The notes under the pieces are model-generated. The model ran no database searches and was not told the origin of the DNA. It saw nothing but the letters and a program-made list of their open reading frames with translations. DNA of 10,402 nucleotides, taken from the UHGV virus genome UHGV-0126656; one strand, written 5' to 3'. Every line of letters starts with the position of its first letter. The first letter of the stretch is position 1. The DNA comes from a virus. Positions 194-10,402 of the stretch are shown in pieces. The position numbers and the translations under genes were made by a program.

Positions 194-862
194 TTACCCG
201 TTCACATGAATATCCATCCCGGCGCGTCCGTGCTGCGTGATGGTTATCAGGCCATCTTCTTTGAGTTGTTTCAACAATGCCAGAAAAGTATTGCGGCCCG
301 GTGCACCAATAGGCCAGATCGCCTTAATCAGTCCGGCATGATTGACGCCATGTAGCGGCGCGTTTGCCTTCAGATAATCCAGTACAGTGTCAGCCTTAAA
401 GCGTACAGGCTTTTTAAACTCCTTATTCGTACCAGTTACGACCGTTTCATGTGGTTCTGTACCTTTCGTCTTGCCTGCGTCCGGTACGGCGCTTTCCGGT
501 ACTGTTTCAACTTCCTGCGCGGCTTTTGTACTGATTGCCATCAGACGTGCTTCCAGTTCCCGGATCTGTGCGTCCTTGTCTGCAATGATGCCTTTCAGTT
601 CGCTGTTAGCCGCTTCCAGTTCTTCTACGGCCTCGCTAACTTCCCCAGCGTACAGGAAGCCGATAACCCCACGACCGCAATTAAGCTCATTCACGACCTT
701 CACAAAGACCTCCCATTTTGGCGTCTTCTGGCGCTTGAATACGGCCTTTATTTCATCGCTGGCGACACCTAACACCCCAGCCATATTGCTATGGATGTGA
801 CCGCGTTTATCACGGTATTTGTCATCGGCCCGCTGTTGTAGCATTTTGATTAAATCGTTCAT
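194..862 (-). CDS. Hypothetical protein (222 aa), central coiled-coil, possible C-terminal winged-helix-like region
   Basis: The ORF track gives 194..973 from a GTG start, but that extension overlaps the upstream terminator at 974..995. The internal ATG at 860..862 (MNDLIKMLQQ...) has an AAGGGG Shine-Dalgarno 8 nt upstream and is preferred. Heptad-like acidic segment (EVSEAVEELEAANSELKGIIADKDAQIRELEARL). No family recognised. Confidence 0.55.
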   Translation of the reverse strand: MNDLIKMLQQRADDKYRDKRGHIHSNMAGVLGVASDEIKAVFKRQKTPKWEVFVKVVNELNCGRGVIGFLYAGEVSEAVEELEAANSELKGIIADKDAQIRELEARLMAISTKAAQEVETVPESAVPDAGKTKGTEPHETVVTGTNKEFKKPVRFKADTVLDYLKANAPLHGVNHAGLIKAIWPIGAPGRNTFLALLKQLKEDGLITITQHGRAGMDIHVNG

Positions 863-973
863 CCTTTGCCCCTTAATTAATCCAGAAACATTGTAATTAC
901 TCGCTATTGGTACGATAACAGGCGCGGCGGCTGGTGGATAAGTGTAATAGGTGGGAATGTTGACGCAGATCAC

Positions 974-2193: not shown

Positions 2194-4398
2194 TTAACGC
2201 CGCCGTGGTTGTAACATGCCTCCAGGTCTTTGCGACTCGCGCTGCATCAGGCGCATTGCTGTGTTTTCTATAGTCTGTTGCAACGCTTTTGAGTCGTCTT
2301 CAGTCCAGCCGTTTGTCGCCTGGATGTTGTTTGTTACGTTCAGTGTGATGCCGCCACCACTGCCAACCAGATCGCGGCCCGGTGTAACTCGTCCACCCTC
2401 GCCGGGGATCATGTACTGTTTCCCGCCAGTAGAGGTAAATAACTCAGGGACACCGTGCTCACCAACCCTGTAAAGATTGCCACCGTTAACCGCGCCGCCG
2501 TTGTAGCGACCACCGCCAAACAAGCCAGTAATGCCAGCCATCAAGGCGCTGATAGCTGACATTGCGACCATCGGGGCCGTCCCCATTGTCGCGGTAGCTG
2601 TCGCCGCTGCTGCCGGGGCCATTGATGATGCGATTGATGCGCCTGTTGCCGCTGCTGTTGCCGCTTGTCCGCTCATTGCGCTGGCGCTGGCTGCCTCGCT
2701 TAAGATCATTTGTTTGACGTATTCAGCGCCCATCTCAGCGATACTTCCCACCACTTTTCCGAGAATGGTAGTCCCGATATTGGCGAAAGCGGTTTCCAGG
2801 TTCTGCGTACCATTAAGCAGGCCGACAACGGCATTTGTAGCGCCACCACTCAGGCCATCAGCCATGTCACCAATCAGGCCATTAATCCCACCTTGCGCCC
2901 GGAATTGTTCCCACTGCGAGGCAAGCAATTCTTCTGCGTGCTGTTGTTTAAGCGCGTTTAGCGTTTCCTCGTTAATCATCTGTTTGTTGAATAGCTCATC
3001 AGCCTGTTGCATTTCAAGGGCATGGCGTTGTTTGAGCGCATCAACGGGATTAAATTGCTCATTAAGCTGTTTTGCTTTTTCTTCCAGTTCGATTTGATGC
3101 TCACGCGCGGCGTTTGTTTCGTAAATCAGGTGCGCAAGGTTTTTCATCTCACTAACCTGTTTTGCCGTTGCGTTAGCGCCCATTTCCTGAACGGCGTCCC
3201 ACATTTCAGCCTCTTTGCTACCCTCAGCAAAGCCCTGGTTAAGTCGTTCCAGTTCTGCGCGTTTCCGTTTCAGCGCTTCTTCTGCCGGATCTTTCTGCGC
3301 GCGTTTCGGTTTATTGCCACCTCCACCGCCATTGTCTTTCAGCTTAATATCAGTGGTGGCCTGCTGTGTCGGTAGCGTTGACACAAAACCCGTAGATTGA
3401 TTGTCTGGCGCTGCGCCTAAGAAGTCGGTTTGTTTGGCTTGAGCGCGGAATAAATCAAGGCCCGGCACAAACGGCTCAAAGGCTGCGGCAAGTGTCCATA
3501 ACTTATCAGCCAATGACGCAGAATCAGATTTCAGCGTTTTAAACCAGCCGGATAGCTCGCGGCAATAATCAGCCAGCGTTTTAATACCGCGACCGACCAG
3601 TTCAGTAACATGCAGCGTCTGGTCGATGGTTTCCAGTAACAGGCTAAAATTTGTTGATAGCTCTGTCATTGCCTGTTCCGTGGTTGTCGGCAGCTTGTTA
3701 AATTCTTTTTCGATTTCGCCTGATCCTTTCAGGATTGCATTTACTACATCCTCAGCCGTCAGTTTGCCATCCAACATGCGGCGACGTAGCTCACCCATTG
3801 AGATCCCCATCTGACTTGCTACGCGCCGCCATAGCTCCGGCATACCCTCCAGGATGCTGTTAAATTCCTCAGCACGGACAATACCGCCGTTAATAGATTG
3901 CCCTAACTGTCGCAAGGCGTTTGCGGCTTCTTCGGATGAACTACCACCAATACGCCCGATCTGCTGTAGTGTCTCTGTCAACTGTAAGATCTGGCCCCCG
4001 GTAGCGTTTGCATCAGACAAAGCTGAAGTAAGGCTTTCCCATAACTTAGTAGTATCCTCAATCTTCATGCCAGTTCGCTTGCTGATCTCAAGAATGCCGC
4101 TAAAATTAGCCTTAGCTTCAACCAGACTACCGGATAGCCGGGATACACGGGCGCGTAGTAGTTTTACGTTGTCCGCGATTTCAATAAAGCGTTTAGCCGC
4201 CATCATTAGCAGGCCAACGTTAACCGCCGCCGCCAGTTTGCTGATTGTCGTATTCAGTTTGTTGATTGAGTTATCAGCGCGCTTTGCGCCGCGTTCAATG
4301 CGATCGAATGCGTCGTCAGCTTGTTTCCCTGCGGTTAATAGCTTCCCTGTGCGCGCATCAACCTCATAATAAATTCTACCTACGTTTGTGTTACTCAT
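2194..4398 (-). CDS. Phage tail tape-measure-like protein (734 aa)
   Basis: Long, mostly helical protein with an N-terminal region typical of tape-measure domains (GMPELWRRVASQMGISMGELRRRMLDGKLTAEDVVNAI), a Gly run (GGGGGNKPKR), a coiled-coil middle, a C-terminal Ala/Gly/Thr/Ser-rich hydrophobic stretch and a Gly-rich tail (LYRVGEHGVPELFTSTGGKQYMIPGEGG). Classification is by resemblance; no search was run. Confidence 0.75.
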   Translation of the reverse strand: MSNTNVGRIYYEVDARTGKLLTAGKQADDAFDRIERGAKRADNSINKLNTTISKLAAAVNVGLLMMAAKRFIEIADNVKLLRARVSRLSGSLVEAKANFSGILEISKRTGMKIEDTTKLWESLTSALSDANATGGQILQLTETLQQIGRIGGSSSEEAANALRQLGQSINGGIVRAEEFNSILEGMPELWRRVASQMGISMGELRRRMLDGKLTAEDVVNAILKGSGEIEKEFNKLPTTTEQAMTELSTNFSLLLETIDQTLHVTELVGRGIKTLADYCRELSGWFKTLKSDSASLADKLWTLAAAFEPFVPGLDLFRAQAKQTDFLGAAPDNQSTGFVSTLPTQQATTDIKLKDNGGGGGNKPKRAQKDPAEEALKRKRAELERLNQGFAEGSKEAEMWDAVQEMGANATAKQVSEMKNLAHLIYETNAAREHQIELEEKAKQLNEQFNPVDALKQRHALEMQQADELFNKQMINEETLNALKQQHAEELLASQWEQFRAQGGINGLIGDMADGLSGGATNAVVGLLNGTQNLETAFANIGTTILGKVVGSIAEMGAEYVKQMILSEAASASAMSGQAATAAATGASIASSMAPAAAATATATMGTAPMVAMSAISALMAGITGLFGGGRYNGGAVNGGNLYRVGEHGVPELFTSTGGKQYMIPGEGGRVTPGRDLVGSGGGITLNVTNNIQATNGWTEDDSKALQQTIENTAMRLMQRESQRPGGMLQPRRR

Positions 4399-4640
4399 GT
4401 CCTGTATATCCGCGTTGTGCGGATACCTCCGATTGTTCTTTACTCTAATAATTCCGCCATGAAACAGTTTATTGCCGCTTCAGTGACTTCGTGTTCAGGT
4501 TTGCTTCAACCAATCACAAAAAACATCGTTTAATAGAATCAATGGCTTATAAAGCTGTATCAGCTATGCTTCTTTGTCAAAGCCACTGAAAATCAAGTTT
4601 TCCCAATGAAATCAATGCTGATATACATCCATATCGTTTT

Positions 4641-4657
4641 TAACGTAATGTACGTTA
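4641..4657. promoter_or_regulatory. Perfect 7-3-7 palindrome TAACGTA-ATG-TACGTTA (candidate operator)
   Basis: Read directly in the 290 bp gap between the 76-aa gene and the tape-measure-like gene; shape fits a dimeric HTH regulator binding site. Confidence 0.35.
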
Positions 4658-4687
4658 TGCGCACTGCGGGAAACGTACTGGATTTAT

Positions 4688-6537: not shown

Positions 6538-6556
6538 GTTCTCACCTCAAAAAGTA

Positions 6557-6729: not shown

Positions 6730-6758
6730 TTGCGCATCTCACGTAATACAGGGATAAT
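6730..6758 (+). promoter_or_regulatory. Candidate sigma70 promoter (TTGCGC-17 nt-GATAAT)
   Basis: -35-like TTGCGC (6730..6735) and -10 GATAAT (6753..6758) with 17 nt spacing, pointing toward the plus-strand terminator at 6825..6851. Confidence 0.3.
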
Positions 6759-6764
6759 ATTACT

Positions 6765-6851
6765 CAAGGGCTGGTAACCCTTACTCAAAATGTGATCTAT
6801 AACTACAACGATTGATTTCACTTCCCCGCTCTCTCCGGCGGGATTTTTTTT
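6765..6851 (+). ncRNA. Candidate small RNA (~85 nt), divergent from alpA
   Basis: Bounded by the candidate promoter and a strong intrinsic terminator. No ORF (ATG TGA only). Has a 5-prime stem-loop (AAGGG-CUGGUAA-CCCUU) and an AU-rich linker before the terminator. Confidence 0.3.
6825..6851 (+). terminator. Rho-independent terminator (plus strand)
   Basis: GC hairpin (CCCGC ... GCGGG, 6825..6842) followed by eight T (6844..6851). No plus-strand CDS lies upstream. Confidence 0.6.
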
Positions 6852-7971
6852 GCCTGCAATCACCACATCAAAACTAATTAAAATTAGATGCCGTTTAAAC
6901 GCAATATAACGCATTCTGACGGCCTTAATTTTTGGCAATGCATTTGCTCAGGTGTGATTAGATTGATTCGTCTGGCGTGGAATGGTGCGGCGGTAATATC
7001 AGATCTCAGCGTTCTGTGTGGCGATTCCTCAGCTCTGAGGAGTGGGCGTCCGTCATTCAGTCTCAGCACCTTGCTCAAACGAGATCGGCTGCGATGGCGT
7101 TGTAGGCCGCATTCTGTCGTTTAATGAGACGTGCCTGATTGGACAATCTGAAATCTGGTTGGTGAGACTATTCAGGCGAGACTGTTCAGCGGGGAAAGCG
7201 GCGCATGTCGATGAATCCATTCCTGGATTAATCGGCGTTGTTCCGGTGTCTGGTGAAAATTTAATGAAATCGCATCAATTATAATGCGTCTAAATCGCTC
7301 TGTGGCGACGTGAAGTTTTCAGGTAAGCAAGTGCGGTTATATGTGTTCATCGCGTTACAGGCACCATTCCGTTCGAATTTGGCACGGTCAGGATGGTTTG
7401 CGGTGGTCGGCGGCGGGGATAAACTTGCTTGAGTGGTCACCTCAGCCTGCTGTGCGTCGTGTGATGGTACTGTCTGCACCTGGCTATACGCTGCTTTGCT
7501 GCTGTTTCCTGTCTGGTCTGTATACGCGATAAAACCCATCGGCTTTACAGTGAGTGAGTTTTTTGCGCTTTGCTTTCCATTCGGTTTGCTTACTGCTGCT
7601 GTGTGTCTGTGCGGTAGCTCAGAAAGCTGTTGACGATAACCATCACTGCTAAGCCCGTCTTTTAAGCTGGCAATTGCTCGAAGCCTTCCGAAGGCCCACC
7701 AATAAGAAATCACCCTTTGAGATATACCGCGCTCCCCATGAACGAATGCCATGATGGTTTGTTGGTCTGCTGTTCAGGTTGTACGTGAGTGAATGGGCGT
7801 TTCCAGCTTGCTGGAAATGATTGCGCTAATCAGCATGGTTAATGCTCGCAACCAGCCGACCTATCAGGCGGCGAAATAATTCTTCTGTTTAACTCTAGGC
7901 GACTCTCTATGACCGACCGGGAGGCTAAAAAACTCCCGTCGCCTAGAATTCTTAATAGTAGAATTCTTACT

Positions 7972-8082
7972 CGGCAACTTTTGACCCACCCTAACGGCAA
8001 CTTTTGACCCACCAATAACGGCAACTTTTGACCCACCTGAAGGCATAAATTGACCCACCCTAACGGCAACTTTTTACCCACC
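7972..8082. repeat. Iteron array (about 5 direct repeats, 23-24 bp period), putative replication origin
   Basis: AACGGCAACTTTTGACCCACC repeats beginning 7972, 7993, 8017 and 8062, with a degenerate copy at 8041..8059. Flanked at 7944..7969 by two TAGAATTCTTA repeats and at 7918..7938 by a hairpin. Lies just downstream of the Rep-like gene and its terminator. Confidence 0.7.
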
Positions 8083-8102
8083 TGAATTCATGGAATTAAG
8101 GC

Positions 8103-8129
8103 AAAGAAAAGGCGGGAACATTGCCCGCC
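8103..8129 (-). terminator. Rho-independent terminator after the Rep-like gene
   Basis: Minus strand: hairpin GGCGGG/CCCGCC (plus 8111..8129) followed by TTTTCTTT (plus 8103..8110), immediately after the stop at 8138. Confidence 0.5.
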
Positions 8130-8137
8130 TGATTCCG

Positions 8138-8665
8138 TTATTTCATGTTGTACGGCTTGAATAATAACTGGTATTCGTTGCACTCCCTTTCTGCCGATCC
8201 TGGTATATAGCCTTCAGTACGCTCAACAAGTTTGAAGTGGTTGACCAGACGATCGAGGCATTTTTTAACCGTGTTTTTTGATAGCCTGGCTCGTTTGTCG
8301 ATTGTTCCCCTACCAACCCTGCACCATCCCAACGGTGAGTTTTTGCCAGTACCAGCGAAGTAACAAAGAGCACGTAGCACAGCCTCGTCGTTGACTGTAT
8401 GTTCTTTCTCCCATCTTTCGTACAGTTTGCGGGGCAATACTTCATCAAGTCGGTTCAATGTGTCCAGGTAGCGCAGGTTGCCACGCCAGGCTTGCTCCTG
8501 CTGTTTTGCCTCGTGATGATCTGTTTCCTCGTGATTATCTGGCGTGTGTTCTTCGTGTTTAGTCTCTTCGTTTTTGGGTGCTTTATTCCGTAACTCGTTA
8601 ATTTTATTTAAAAATTGACGAACATCATTGTTTGTTTCTTGTTCTACTGCTAGCATATCAGACAT
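8138..8665 (-). CDS. Putative iteron-binding replication initiator, winged-helix (phage O N-terminal-like), 175 aa
   Basis: The ORF track starts at 8779, but the ATG at 8663..8665 (MSDMLAVEQ...) has an AAGGAG Shine-Dalgarno 8 nt upstream and is preferred. C-terminal segment (AVLRALCYFAGTGKNSPLGWCRVGRGTIDKRARLSKNTVKKCLDRLVNHF) resembles winged-HTH replication initiator domains; acidic His/Glu-rich N-terminal region. Function inferred from fold-like motif plus the adjacent iterons. Confidence 0.5.
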   Translation of the reverse strand: MSDMLAVEQETNNDVRQFLNKINELRNKAPKNEETKHEEHTPDNHEETDHHEAKQQEQAWRGNLRYLDTLNRLDEVLPRKLYERWEKEHTVNDEAVLRALCYFAGTGKNSPLGWCRVGRGTIDKRARLSKNTVKKCLDRLVNHFKLVERTEGYIPGSAERECNEYQLLFKPYNMK

Positions 8666-8839
8666 GAGAAATTCTCCTTTAGCTTGTTTCTCATACCGCC
8701 CCCGGAATGTTGCAGCATGCCGGGGGCTTTTATTTGTGTTGATCCTATTTTCGAACTCTGGATCTTTCGTTGCAAACATGGATTTAAGTTCTTGATATTG
8801 AATAATTTATTCCACTTAATTGGAATAATGGAATAATTA

Positions 8840-8868
8840 GCGAAAAAGAAAAGCCGGACGAATCCGGC
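8840..8868 (-). terminator. Rho-independent terminator downstream of the integrase gene
   Basis: Minus strand: hairpin GCCGGA-UUCG-UCCGGC (plus 8853..8868) followed by TTTTCTTTTT (plus 8840..8852), about 100 nt past the int stop. Confidence 0.5.
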
Positions 8869-8969
8869 AAATTGAATACAGGTTTCTTATCAGGTGATAG
8901 TTAAACCACACAAAACAAATGCTTATACAAAATGCAAAATTGCGCTTTGCAAAAAAGCCGCTTAATTAT

Positions 8970-10178
8970 TCATTCCGGTTCTAGAGGATTGCCGTTACCT
9001 GCCAATATTGAATCAATAGCGTCGGCGTAATCCTGCATCATTGCTCGCCGTTGCTTCAGGTAGGCCGCCTGGTTATAAATCGCCCTGATTCCCTTTGGAA
9101 CATGGGCCAATTGGATTTCGACCCAATCAGGGTTATACCTGCCGGATTCGTTAAGCGCCGTGCTGAATGTTGTGCGCCAGCCGTGGCCTGTAACCGTCGA
9201 TTTGAATCCGATACGCTCCAGGGCTTTAAGGATGGCACTGGCTGAAAGTGGCTTATCCATGAATCGACCAGGGAACACAAAAGCACTGTATCCGCTGCGG
9301 GTAAACTGGTCCTGTAATAGCTCGACCGCCTGCCGGGATAGCGGGACCACATGCGGGCGGCGGGCCTTCATGACTTCAGCGGGTAGGGTGATGGTTGCCG
9401 ATTCCAGATCTACCCACTCCCAGCGCATTAAACGCAGTTCTGCGGTCCTTAGGGCGCTTAATATAAGCAAACGTATTGCCGTCTGAATCTGAACGCTCCC
9501 GGCTCTCTCAAGGGCTTTGTAGAAGGCCGGGATTTCACTAATTTGCAGCCATGCGTTATGACCTGGGCGTCTGGCTTTCAATGCCGTGTCCAGATCTGCA
9601 ACCGGATTTCTGCTAACCAGTTCGGTGATAACGGCAAATTTGAAGATCTCCCCGATACGCTGGCGTAATTTCCTGGCCTGTTCCGGTGCGGTGCGCTCTT
9701 TCTTCTGAAGCAATGCCAGTACGTCACGGGCGGTTATATCAACGATTGAACGTTTTCCCAGCACGGTGTAAACATCTTTCTCTAGTGCCGATCTGACCTG
9801 CTTTGTATAGCTCTCACTCCAACCGCTCACTCTGGTAGCAAACCAGTCTTCCGCTACCGTCTTAAAACTTGCCGCCATGTTGAGCGCATCAATGGCTTTC
9901 TCCTTGCGCGCTTCTTCCATTGGGTCAATTCCCTGGGCGATGAGTAAACGGCTCTCTGTGGCGCGTTTACGTGCTTCCTTCAAGGTAATCAGCGGATATA
10001 CCCCAATAGCCTGTAACCGCTCTTTCTTGTCTATCCAGTACCGGAATCGCCAGTATTTGCTGCCATTGGGATGCACCAGCAAGAACAGGCCAGGTGTCTG
10101 TGAATCGGTGAGTTTGTAGGGCTTGTCCTTCGGCTGGGCGGCCTCTATGCCCTTTGCTGTCAGTGGTGTCTTGCTCAA
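8970..10178 (-). CDS. int: Tyrosine recombinase, P4-type phage integrase (402 aa)
   Basis: N-terminal arm-binding signature (PYKLTDSQTPGLFLLVHPNGSKYWRFRYW) and C-terminal catalytic region (HGWRTTFSTALNESG ... VEIQLAHVPKGIRAIYNQAAYLKQRRAMMQDYAD) characteristic of P4-family integrases. Start codon is TTG at 10176..10178 with a GAGGT Shine-Dalgarno 8 nt upstream. Confidence 0.9.
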   Translation of the reverse strand: MSKTPLTAKGIEAAQPKDKPYKLTDSQTPGLFLLVHPNGSKYWRFRYWIDKKERLQAIGVYPLITLKEARKRATESRLLIAQGIDPMEEARKEKAIDALNMAASFKTVAEDWFATRVSGWSESYTKQVRSALEKDVYTVLGKRSIVDITARDVLALLQKKERTAPEQARKLRQRIGEIFKFAVITELVSRNPVADLDTALKARRPGHNAWLQISEIPAFYKALERAGSVQIQTAIRLLILSALRTAELRLMRWEWVDLESATITLPAEVMKARRPHVVPLSRQAVELLQDQFTRSGYSAFVFPGRFMDKPLSASAILKALERIGFKSTVTGHGWRTTFSTALNESGRYNPDWVEIQLAHVPKGIRAIYNQAAYLKQRRAMMQDYADAIDSILAGNGNPLEPE

Positions 10179-10366
10179 AACCGGATACCTCGATCTAACG
10201 ACTCGATAACCCCGCTCATGTATCCGGCGCGTTCGGTTGCGTTCGGCAGGATAAGTAACGGGCGTATTAAGGGGAACACCTTACAGCACAAGGGCTAACG
10301 ATGAAATAGAATTGTTCGAATGCTGGAAGAAATGTTACTCATCACTTCTTCCTGAGGGAACGACTT

Positions 10367-10402
10367 ATGAAACTAAAGACCACATTGTTCGGCAATGTAT
10401 AT
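10367..10402 (+). CDS. Partial CDS, 5-prime end only (MKLKTTLFGNVY...), unknown product
   Basis: ATG at 10367 preceded by a GAGGGAA Shine-Dalgarno with 6 nt spacer; ORF runs off the window. Divergent from int. Confidence 0.35.
   Translation, partial: MKLKTTLFGNVY

Follow-up and report, generated by a model that had tools for sequence, protein, structure and literature searches.

The window analysed here is a stretch of 10,402 nucleotides from the virus genome UHGV-0126656, and BLAST comparison with complete E. coli genomes identified the whole of it as a complete CPZ-55-type island in the eutA/eutB insertion site, which is also the insertion site of the cryptic prophage CPZ-55 of K-12. All genes of the island are on the minus strand. 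Positions 6860-7960, between a short gene for an AlpA-like protein and the iterons next to the gene for a YffL-type protein (Rep), are gene-free and mosaic. At the left end of a conserved block within them is a conserved sigma-70-like pair of -35 and -10 hexamers on the minus strand (candidate promoter Pc), directly upstream of a slot in which relatives hold one of at least three different minus-strand genes of helix-turn-helix (HTH) or winged-helix-like type. The interval is interpreted, with a probability of roughly 0.4, as non-coding backbone DNA that connects the Rep-iteron module with the early (HTH/HNH) operon of CPZ-55-type elements and serves mainly for cis-acting control. Modules were defined by BLAST breakpoints against 20-odd relatives, designated by L numbers below, and together with their immediate neighbours are as follows:

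6730-6851, plus strand: candidate small-RNA gene, with promoter TTGCGC-17-GATAAT at 6730-6758, an RNA of about 85 nt at 6765-6851 and an intrinsic terminator at 6825-6851
6881-6976, minus strand: 3' remnant of a dead winged-helix regulator gene (about 150 aa), located by tblastn
6955-7021, no strand assigned: block B, conserved non-coding DNA kept in relatives without the 150-aa gene
7021-7250, no strand assigned: variable cassette slot, empty here, delimited by recurrent BLAST breakpoints at 7021 and 7250
7164-7199, plus strand: tandem 14-nt duplication (GAGACTATTCAGGC / GAGACTGTTCAGCG) running into GCGGGGAAAGC
7255-7545, no strand assigned: block C, the conserved non-coding core, aligned in 19 homologues
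7278-7306, minus strand: candidate sigma-70 promoter Pc, with -35 GCCACA, a 17-bp spacer and -10 TATAAT, from a consensus-motif scan
7546-7826, no strand assigned: block D, conserved non-coding DNA of a subset of relatives, in K-12 from 7635 on
7827-7957, no strand assigned: Rep-type-specific origin flank, with an inverted repeat (7891-7903 / 7938-7950) and an AT-rich direct 11-mer
7958-8082, no strand assigned: iterons, five copies of about 23 nt (CGGCAACTTTTGACCCACCCTAA), just outside the interval

An earlier note on this DNA, made from the letters alone, had seen no convincing gene in the interval, only short overlapping open reading frames (ORFs) on both strands, and this description held up. 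The longest entry in the mechanical ORF list, 7279-7752 on the minus strand, would encode 157 aa, a length reached or exceeded in 2.7% of dinucleotide shuffles of the interval; ORF length alone is borderline and not decisive, and it is the comparative data that decide. The core alignment comprised 19 homologues from E. coli chromosomes, gut-metagenome contigs (L018-L027) and one 9-kb plasmid. Relatives that are 82-97% identical are separated by many 1-nt indels, neither the frame nor the end of any ORF is retained across 20 homologues, and L021, L031 and L058 possess no ORF of 60 aa or more. Variable columns are distributed over the three codon phases as 49/43/41 in 7262-7545 and as 28/26/25 in 7341-7532, so that codon periodicity, in the form of an excess of substitutions at third codon positions, is absent from both stretches. 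Six-frame translations gave no Pfam and no PHROGs matches (E up to 1), and the homologous DNA has been left unannotated by the Prokaryotic Genome Annotation Pipeline (PGAP) in most complete E. coli genomes.

Two frames over the conserved core were rejected as coding. A minus-strand frame is open over approximately 7261-7542 in many relatives, and nearly all differences between them alter the protein (the window and L002 disagree at about 13 of 58 residues in a hand count on translations); stop codons are rare on the minus strand because this strand is poor in T and G, and the frame is therefore read as an artefact of composition. A 63-aa plus-strand ORF at 7341-7532 is broken by 1-nt deletions in L026 and L005, and it too lacks codon periodicity. 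The expectation that comparable islands often hold a primase or other replication gene at this position was not borne out: in the relatives examined the place is empty or holds a small HTH or winged-helix-like gene, comparison of the ORFs of 20 homologues produced no intact gene after correction of frameshifts, and six-frame searches of Pfam and PHROGs revealed no primase or helicase remnant in 6860-7960. A hidden primase gene can be set aside as a false lead.

The earlier note's alternative of a decayed gene proved correct in kind, but the gene is neither a primase nor a helicase. The only part of the interval that resembles any protein is the 95 or so nucleotides at 6881-6976 (minus strand), where the last 30 or so residues of the intact 148-152-aa winged-helix proteins of L006, L007 and L010, and no other part of them, match with 56-63% identity in tblastn. 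The N-terminal 115 or so codons are absent from the window; the gene is intact in L006, L007, L010 and L027, and the frame of the tail is broken in several relatives without the gene body. Block B, adjoining, is near-invariant in the window, L001, L002, L005, L008, L009, L019, L021 and L022, and its ORFs are interrupted on both strands in several of these carriers. The slot that follows is gene-free, with a length of 40-230 bp, in the window, L001, L002, L003, L008, L009 and L019; of 5426 complete E. coli genomes, 19, that of ATCC 8739 among them, have the 230-bp variant of the window in full. Where relatives possess genes in the slot, these always lie on the minus strand, downstream of block C, and are HTH or winged-helix-like: a 75-aa HTH-domain gene in L010, the 150-aa winged-helix gene in L006, L007, L010, L027 and L033, and a 207-aa gene with its own terminator in L032 and L026.

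Block C is present as a single copy in 186 of the 5426 complete E. coli genomes, with 76-97% identity and mostly without annotation, and the CPZ-55-type family of mobile elements as a whole occurs in roughly 3-8% of complete E. coli genomes. The block is also found at a second chromosomal site, ychJ-purU, and in the circular 9,003-bp plasmid pRHB34-C15_2 (CP057168, L005), and weak partial copies of its left half are found in plasmid pRHB29-C22_2 (L030). Two scans of the GTDB species genomes (185,579) revealed no relatives outside Escherichia/Shigella.

The -35 hexamer of Pc is GTCACA in most relatives, and the -10 hexamer appears elsewhere as TAAAAT, TAGAAT, TAGAGT or TAAATT; block C homologues keep the pattern TAnnnT (A2 and T6) amid variation in the spacer and at positions 3-5. 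L031, although only 76% identical, likewise keeps A2 and T6 despite a changed spacer sequence. A separate promoter scan found GTCACA-17-TAAAAT at the homologous site in L006 and L032, in each case upstream of a minus-strand cassette gene. The 23 nt past the -10 hexamer are the most widely conserved part and recur exactly in plasmid L030. Pc thus combines sigma-70 hexamers, a spacing within 16-18 bp and preservation in relatives, and it is predicted to be active, with a start near 7271 from which transcription would read toward the slot and alpA.

Upstream of Pc, conservation varies along the DNA more than chance would give: strict invariance extends over at most 14 nt in a row (7375-7388; permutation p = 0.003). 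The 105-bp distance from GAATTTGGCACGGT to CTGGCTATACGCTG is kept in 17 of 19 sequences, and in L006 a -1/+1 pair of indels 14 nt apart restores it. Such uneven conservation and kept spacing would fit phased protein-binding sites on DNA better than RNA or neutral DNA. Paired 1-nt indels 13-14 nt apart were also observed in L003, L007 and L024, in the homologues of 7375-7528. Three candidate elements in or near this part were examined and rejected: a sigma-54 promoter at TGGCACGG (7381-7388) lacks the GC at -12, a LexA box at TACTGT (7467-7472) lacks its second half-site, and the repeat CAKGATGGTTTG (7389 and 7750) is not significant in the window, with partial copies recurring in plasmid L030. 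The CTGTATA motif to which the earlier note drew attention does have an exact copy in block C, at 7518-7524, but this is not meaningful, the motif being at chance level in the window: 29 matches with at most one mismatch were counted where 20.0 +/- 4.7 were expected, and 29 were reached in 10 of 200 shuffles. The other exact copies are unrelated to that in the interval; those at 140 and 1893 are 3' flanks of repeated minus-strand terminators, and that at 4402 lies just upstream of the start of the tape-measure gene. The terminator module in question exists in three copies on the minus strand (130-170, 973-995 and 1883-1922), the first and third of which are followed by GCTATACAG, and the flanks of these two account for two of the four exact plus-strand copies of CTGTATA.

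To the right of block C, relatives differ by recombination, with junctions in block D near 7545, 7635 (K-12), 7692 and 7826. The yffM ORF of K-12 (L004 6767-7012, equivalent to window position 7635-7646 or thereabouts) starts exactly at the recombination junction where homology to the window begins. The origin flank, 7827-7957, is kept only together with the same YffL-type protein and iterons (L002, L004, which is K-12, L006, L027 and L032) and is replaced in L001-type loci. The AT-rich 11-mer TAGAATTCTTA occurs twice, at 7944 and 7959, adjoining the first iteron. Such AT-rich repeats beside iterons, co-varying with the type of Rep, point to an accessory (unwinding) region of an iteron origin in the rightmost 130 bp of the interval and only there. 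The iterons reported by the earlier note are real. Tandem repeats beside the yffL-type gene switch with the type of YffL-like protein, between five copies of 23 nt, four of about 22 nt and three of 26 nt; those of other Rep types occupy the same place, with four copies in L008 and L009 (approximately 3700-3800) and three 26-nt copies in L005 (1942-2018) and L030 (872-948). This joint change fits specific Rep-iteron pairs.

The third possibility raised by the earlier note, a non-coding RNA, found no support inside the interval: Rfam 15 gave nothing in 6860-7960 (cmscan, E up to 1), and no folding or consensus-structure signal held. For block C, the RNAalifold consensus compared with column shuffles gave z = -0.28 and +0.04 on the two strands. 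Single sequences, folded and compared with dinucleotide shuffles, scored z = +0.75 and -1.06 in block C; the corresponding values in block D were +0.80 and +1.45. As a consensus fold, block D does beat column shuffles (z = -6.3 on the plus strand, -3.6 on the minus strand), but a structured RNA was rejected there, as the signal consists of a few local hairpins in two haplotypes only and is lost in the single-sequence tests.

The RNA that the earlier note suspected is probably the one predicted at 6765-6851 on the plus strand, immediately outside the interval. Its promoter and terminator are conserved across relatives, and it consists of a 5' hairpin, a conserved single-stranded core and the terminator. 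In the RNAalifold model, 3 of 11 pairs change on both sides yet stay paired, including a C:G to A:U change in the terminator stem, and such compensatory changes occur in both the 5' hairpin and the terminator. Although still a candidate, this gene is convincingly indicated by the comparison. The Shine-Dalgarno region of alpA has a complement in the core of the RNA, CUCAAAAUGU(GAUC), visible as a plus-strand repeat (6546-6555 / 6784-6793). In L002, L006 and L010, where an HNH gene stands first in the operon, the core has a longer complementarity (10 + 4 bp, read by eye) to the Shine-Dalgarno region of that gene. The predicted small RNA may repress translation of the first early gene.

The earlier note's suggestion of a cis-acting region is the best reading for 7255-7957, and a plausible one, given the conserved non-coding blocks, the Pc-like hexamers and the origin flank that co-varies with Rep. 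In detail, 7255-7545 would comprise promoter Pc and its upstream control region. Pc would fire leftward from approximately 7271 and would normally express the swappable regulator; in lambdoid immunity regions, too, the regulator is swapped between otherwise similar phages. In the window, where the slot is empty, Pc would yield only an untranslated C-rich RNA, which would meet the convergent small-RNA gene (6765-6851, plus strand) before reaching alpA. The 250 bp or so upstream of Pc, with their kept spacing, could be bound at an array of sites by a factor from the host, the element or a helper that governs the activity of Pc, and 7827-7957 would serve as the unwinding flank of the iteron origin. 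The activity of Pc and of the blocks is deduced throughout from sequence. In kind the feature is probably ordinary, a spacer that serves control and origin in a mobile element, and the sequence family to which it belongs has so far gone undescribed.

Several observations weigh against this interpretation. Pc was recognised by its match to a consensus, and its -35 hexamer in the window agrees at only 3 of 6 positions; its -10 hexamer is not recognisable in the remote homologue L010, and plasmids L005 and L030 also depart from the TAnnnT pattern. Conservation of block C does not exceed that of the adjoining genes (87-88% compared with 96% in L023). Since blocks C and D extend for the greater part upstream of Pc, their conservation calls for more than a promoter, and no binding factor was found for them. 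In the ychJ-purU elements (L008, L009 and L022), blocks D, C, B and A are at the end of the island and no element gene lies downstream of Pc; a replication-linked role therefore fits better there.

Such a role is the substance of an unlikely alternative, in which blocks C and D are cis-acting accessory DNA of an extended origin, either a zone of priming or helicase loading or a stability locus like par of pSC101, that works with host factors and with any Rep-iteron pair. The order rep, iterons, D, C is found wherever iterons occur, at both chromosomal sites and in autonomous 9-kb plasmids, and where the element is inserted at ychJ-purU, it is rep, not alpA, that the blocks accompany. G and T are abundant on the plus strand (GC skew +0.16 to +0.18), and eleven CTG trinucleotides are clustered in 7447-7518; CTG is the preferred start site of DnaG. 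However, none of the accessory sites sought in 6860-7957 was found in relevant form, whether DnaA boxes, integration host factor (IHF) sites, Chi sites or Fis-like motifs; the only DnaA box of the origin region, with one mismatch, is inside the last iteron (8072-8080). The blocks are not AT-rich (49-52% GC), and plasmid L030 retains only the weak partial copies of the left half of block C. L003/L024 and L007/L033 have block C without rep or iterons, whereas K-12 has rep and iterons without block C.

It is slightly less probable still that the stretch is an untranslated leader or insulator, from which a C-rich, unstructured minus-strand RNA initiated at rep or Pc would be ended by Rho with the help of the antisense small RNA, keeping the alpA operon silent until induction in the manner of the leader and timm of phage P4. 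The composition is suggestive: the predicted minus-strand RNA of 6900-7650 has 0.285 C and 0.213 G, its C/G ratio being about 1.3 there, 1.17 over the whole gap and 0.86-0.94 in the flanking genes. This strand also folds weakly (consensus -17 kcal/mol, compared with -35 on the plus strand), there is no minus-strand intrinsic terminator between 7960 and alpA except a weak hairpin at 7288-7271, and the small-RNA gene is convergent with such transcripts. However, the bias of C over G belongs to the sequence of blocks C and D and not to the position, as non-homologous counterparts are near 1.0 (1.02 in L030, 1.04 in L031). Rut sites need neither conserved motifs nor fixed spacing, and little read-through is to be expected past the strong rep terminator at 8130-8110.

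A broader proposal, of which a similarly small chance is given, is that CPZ-55-type elements may be an unrecognised helper-dependent family of Escherichia, with the C-D region of about 570 bp as a shared helper site (a helper-activated promoter or a new packaging signal) and the winged-helix cassette setting helper specificity or immunity.

A site for packaging or helper recognition, with blocks C and D or a cos-like motif at 7175-7199 as the target of a helper terminase or activator on a satellite-like element, is very doubtful. Its attraction is that an element of 9-10 kb possesses a P4-type integrase, an AlpA-like HTH protein and a tape-measure gene without capsid genes, and that some relatives have an HNH endonuclease gene beside the HTH gene; HNH endonucleases are a feature of cos-packaging systems. 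Within the slot variant of the window, and in no other, GCGGGGAAAGC (7189-7199) is an 11-mer identical to positions 7-17 of the P2/P4 cohesive end, GGCGAG (cos positions 1-6) is located 8 nt upstream at 7175-7180, and a 19-nt match to P4 nt 264-282 (18 of 19) follows 25 nt downstream in the same order and orientation. The region 7164-7242 may be a wrecked P4-like cos region. A short match could suffice for packaging, given that cosN is all that EcCICFT073 and lambda have in common in their cos sites (PMC6092414). However, the motif is interrupted and limited to one cassette variant, and no helper phage is known for the CPZ-55-type family. The contiguous 19-nt P2/P4 cohesive end GGCGAGGCGGGGAAAGCAC had no match with up to 3 mismatches, and lambda cosN GGGCGGCGACCT had a best match in the gap with 3 mismatches, the count being at chance level. 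Comparison with ori, crr and cos of P4 yielded only the 11-mer and the 19-mer. A cos or pac site shared with a known phage was rejected, as 6860-7960 had no match in 50,697 phage genomes (E up to 10), and pattern scans of IMG/VR returned only chance 17-21-mers. Similarity to an oriT of known type was not found in PLSDB, where blastn (E up to 10) returned only the related 9-kb plasmids and chance 24-mers.

Decay into neutral DNA, leaving the wreck of lost genes without present function, is most unlikely: a true gene remnant is present, the slot variants differ by deletions and replacements, the K-12 and O157 elements lack most of block C, and block C is less conserved than the neighbouring genes, but C and D persist in 170-186 genomes, in a plasmid as well as at two chromosomal sites, amid surroundings that were swapped, their conservation is uneven beyond chance with motif spacing and promoter elements preserved, and no protein similarity to Pfam or PHROGs is left in them in any frame.

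The genes of the island outside the interval include the following, all on the minus strand, together with several other small genes:

194-973, minus strand: yffS-like gene
2194-4398, minus strand: tape-measure protein, 734 aa
6346-6537, minus strand: "alpA", 63 aa, HTH_17/excisionase-like
8138-8779, minus strand: YffL-type protein (Rep), with weak PHROG matches to a DnaD-like loader and to a replication initiator
8970-10178, minus strand: intZ

The order Rep, iterons, D, C, slot, A with the small RNA, early operon is common to the eut islands and two types of 9-kb plasmid, and the portion from Rep to A is retained at ychJ-purU. The same backbone is inserted beside ychJ-purU in L008, L009, L022 and L034, where the island ends at the equivalent of window position 6851-6870 or thereabouts, immediately past the small-RNA terminator; the end of the island is thus formed by the right part of block A, blocks B, C and D, and rep. 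These elements have another Rep, other iterons and apparently another integrase (a partial match of 31% identity in L022). Plasmids L005 (CP057168, 9,003 bp) and L030 (CP057337, 9,653 bp; CP057350 is similar) are small, circular, typed as non-mobilizable, and from E. coli. Their layout matches that of the island, with rep, three 26-nt iterons, 1.1-1.8 kb of non-coding DNA, an HTH gene and small early genes, and in L005 an HNH gene follows the HTH gene. A serine recombinase replaces IntZ in both, and L031 has both recombinases. The CPZ-55-type family therefore occurs in both forms, plasmid and integrated island.

The tape-measure gene encodes a full-length tail tape-measure protein (Pfam TMP_3, 1e-53; PHROG tape-measure families, approximately 1e-110 to 1e-129) and is the sole recognisable virion gene in the 10-kb island. 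Upstream of it, in an intergenic position (4638-4665, minus strand), is a dif/cer-like XerC/XerD site, AGTGCGCATAA-CGTACA-TTACGTTAAAA, with 3 mismatches to dif outside the spacer, which is likely to be a multimer-resolution site of the circular form. A search of 6860-7960 for XerC and XerD half-sites 6-8 bp apart found no good site.

The window has points in common with several families of well-known elements and, as far as its sequence goes, none of their defining features. Like the stl-str regions of Staphylococcus aureus pathogenicity islands (SaPI) and phage-inducible chromosomal islands (PICI; PMC6092414) and like lambdoid immunity regions, it has a non-coding control region next to integrase and replication genes, a regulator gene exchanged among elements that are alike in other respects, and an AlpA-type HTH gene at the head of the early operon. 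In contrast to all of these, its regulator slot may be empty, its 570 bp or so of conserved non-coding DNA far exceed the usual divergent promoter region, and no repressor-operator pair or helper phage is known for CPZ-55-type elements; the genes that define PICI (pri-rep, terS and capsid-size genes) are all absent. The resemblance to satellite phage P4, with its PLE leader, CI RNA, timm, ori and crr, consists of a P4-type integrase, an AlpA/Vis-like HTH protein, a long untranslated region before the early genes with a small RNA as a likely immunity factor, and an iteron origin with additional DNA required in cis. Similarity of sequence to P4 is confined to the 11-mer and the 19-mer, however; Rfam detects no RNA of the C4/CI type, the small RNA is from the opposite strand, block C is without Rep-binding repeats, and primase alpha, sid, delta and psu are missing. 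Like par of pSC101 and similar loci, the blocks are cis DNA that encodes no protein, is a few hundred bp long and adjoins an iteron origin and rep in small plasmids, whereas PLSDB offers no sequence similarity to them, no gyrase site or repeat architecture has been demonstrated, and block C is also found in islands without rep.

The closest known relative is CPZ-55 of K-12 itself (intZ, yffL to yffS), which shares the eutA/eutB site, intZ, yffL and the iterons, and which is 90.6% identical to window positions 7635-10402 (97.5% over 7635-8900), the only part of the region that it retains. Missing from it are alpA, the genes for the small RNA and the tape-measure protein, and positions 6860-7634 with the slot and blocks A, B and C; the literature on CPZ-55 and the yff genes contains nothing concerning the DNA of 6860-7960. 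Around one tenth of the element is conserved, gene-free DNA, which offers handles on both regulation and replication in the remnant of the regulator gene, the unoccupied slot, the flank of the origin and the likely promoter, upstream of which motif spacing is constrained. The more interesting items adjoin the gap: one is the small RNA, by which ribosome binding at the first early gene may be blocked, and the other is the duality of plasmid and island. Whereas CPZ-55 has been a cryptic prophage of unstudied workings in K-12, the window represents a much fuller relative of it.

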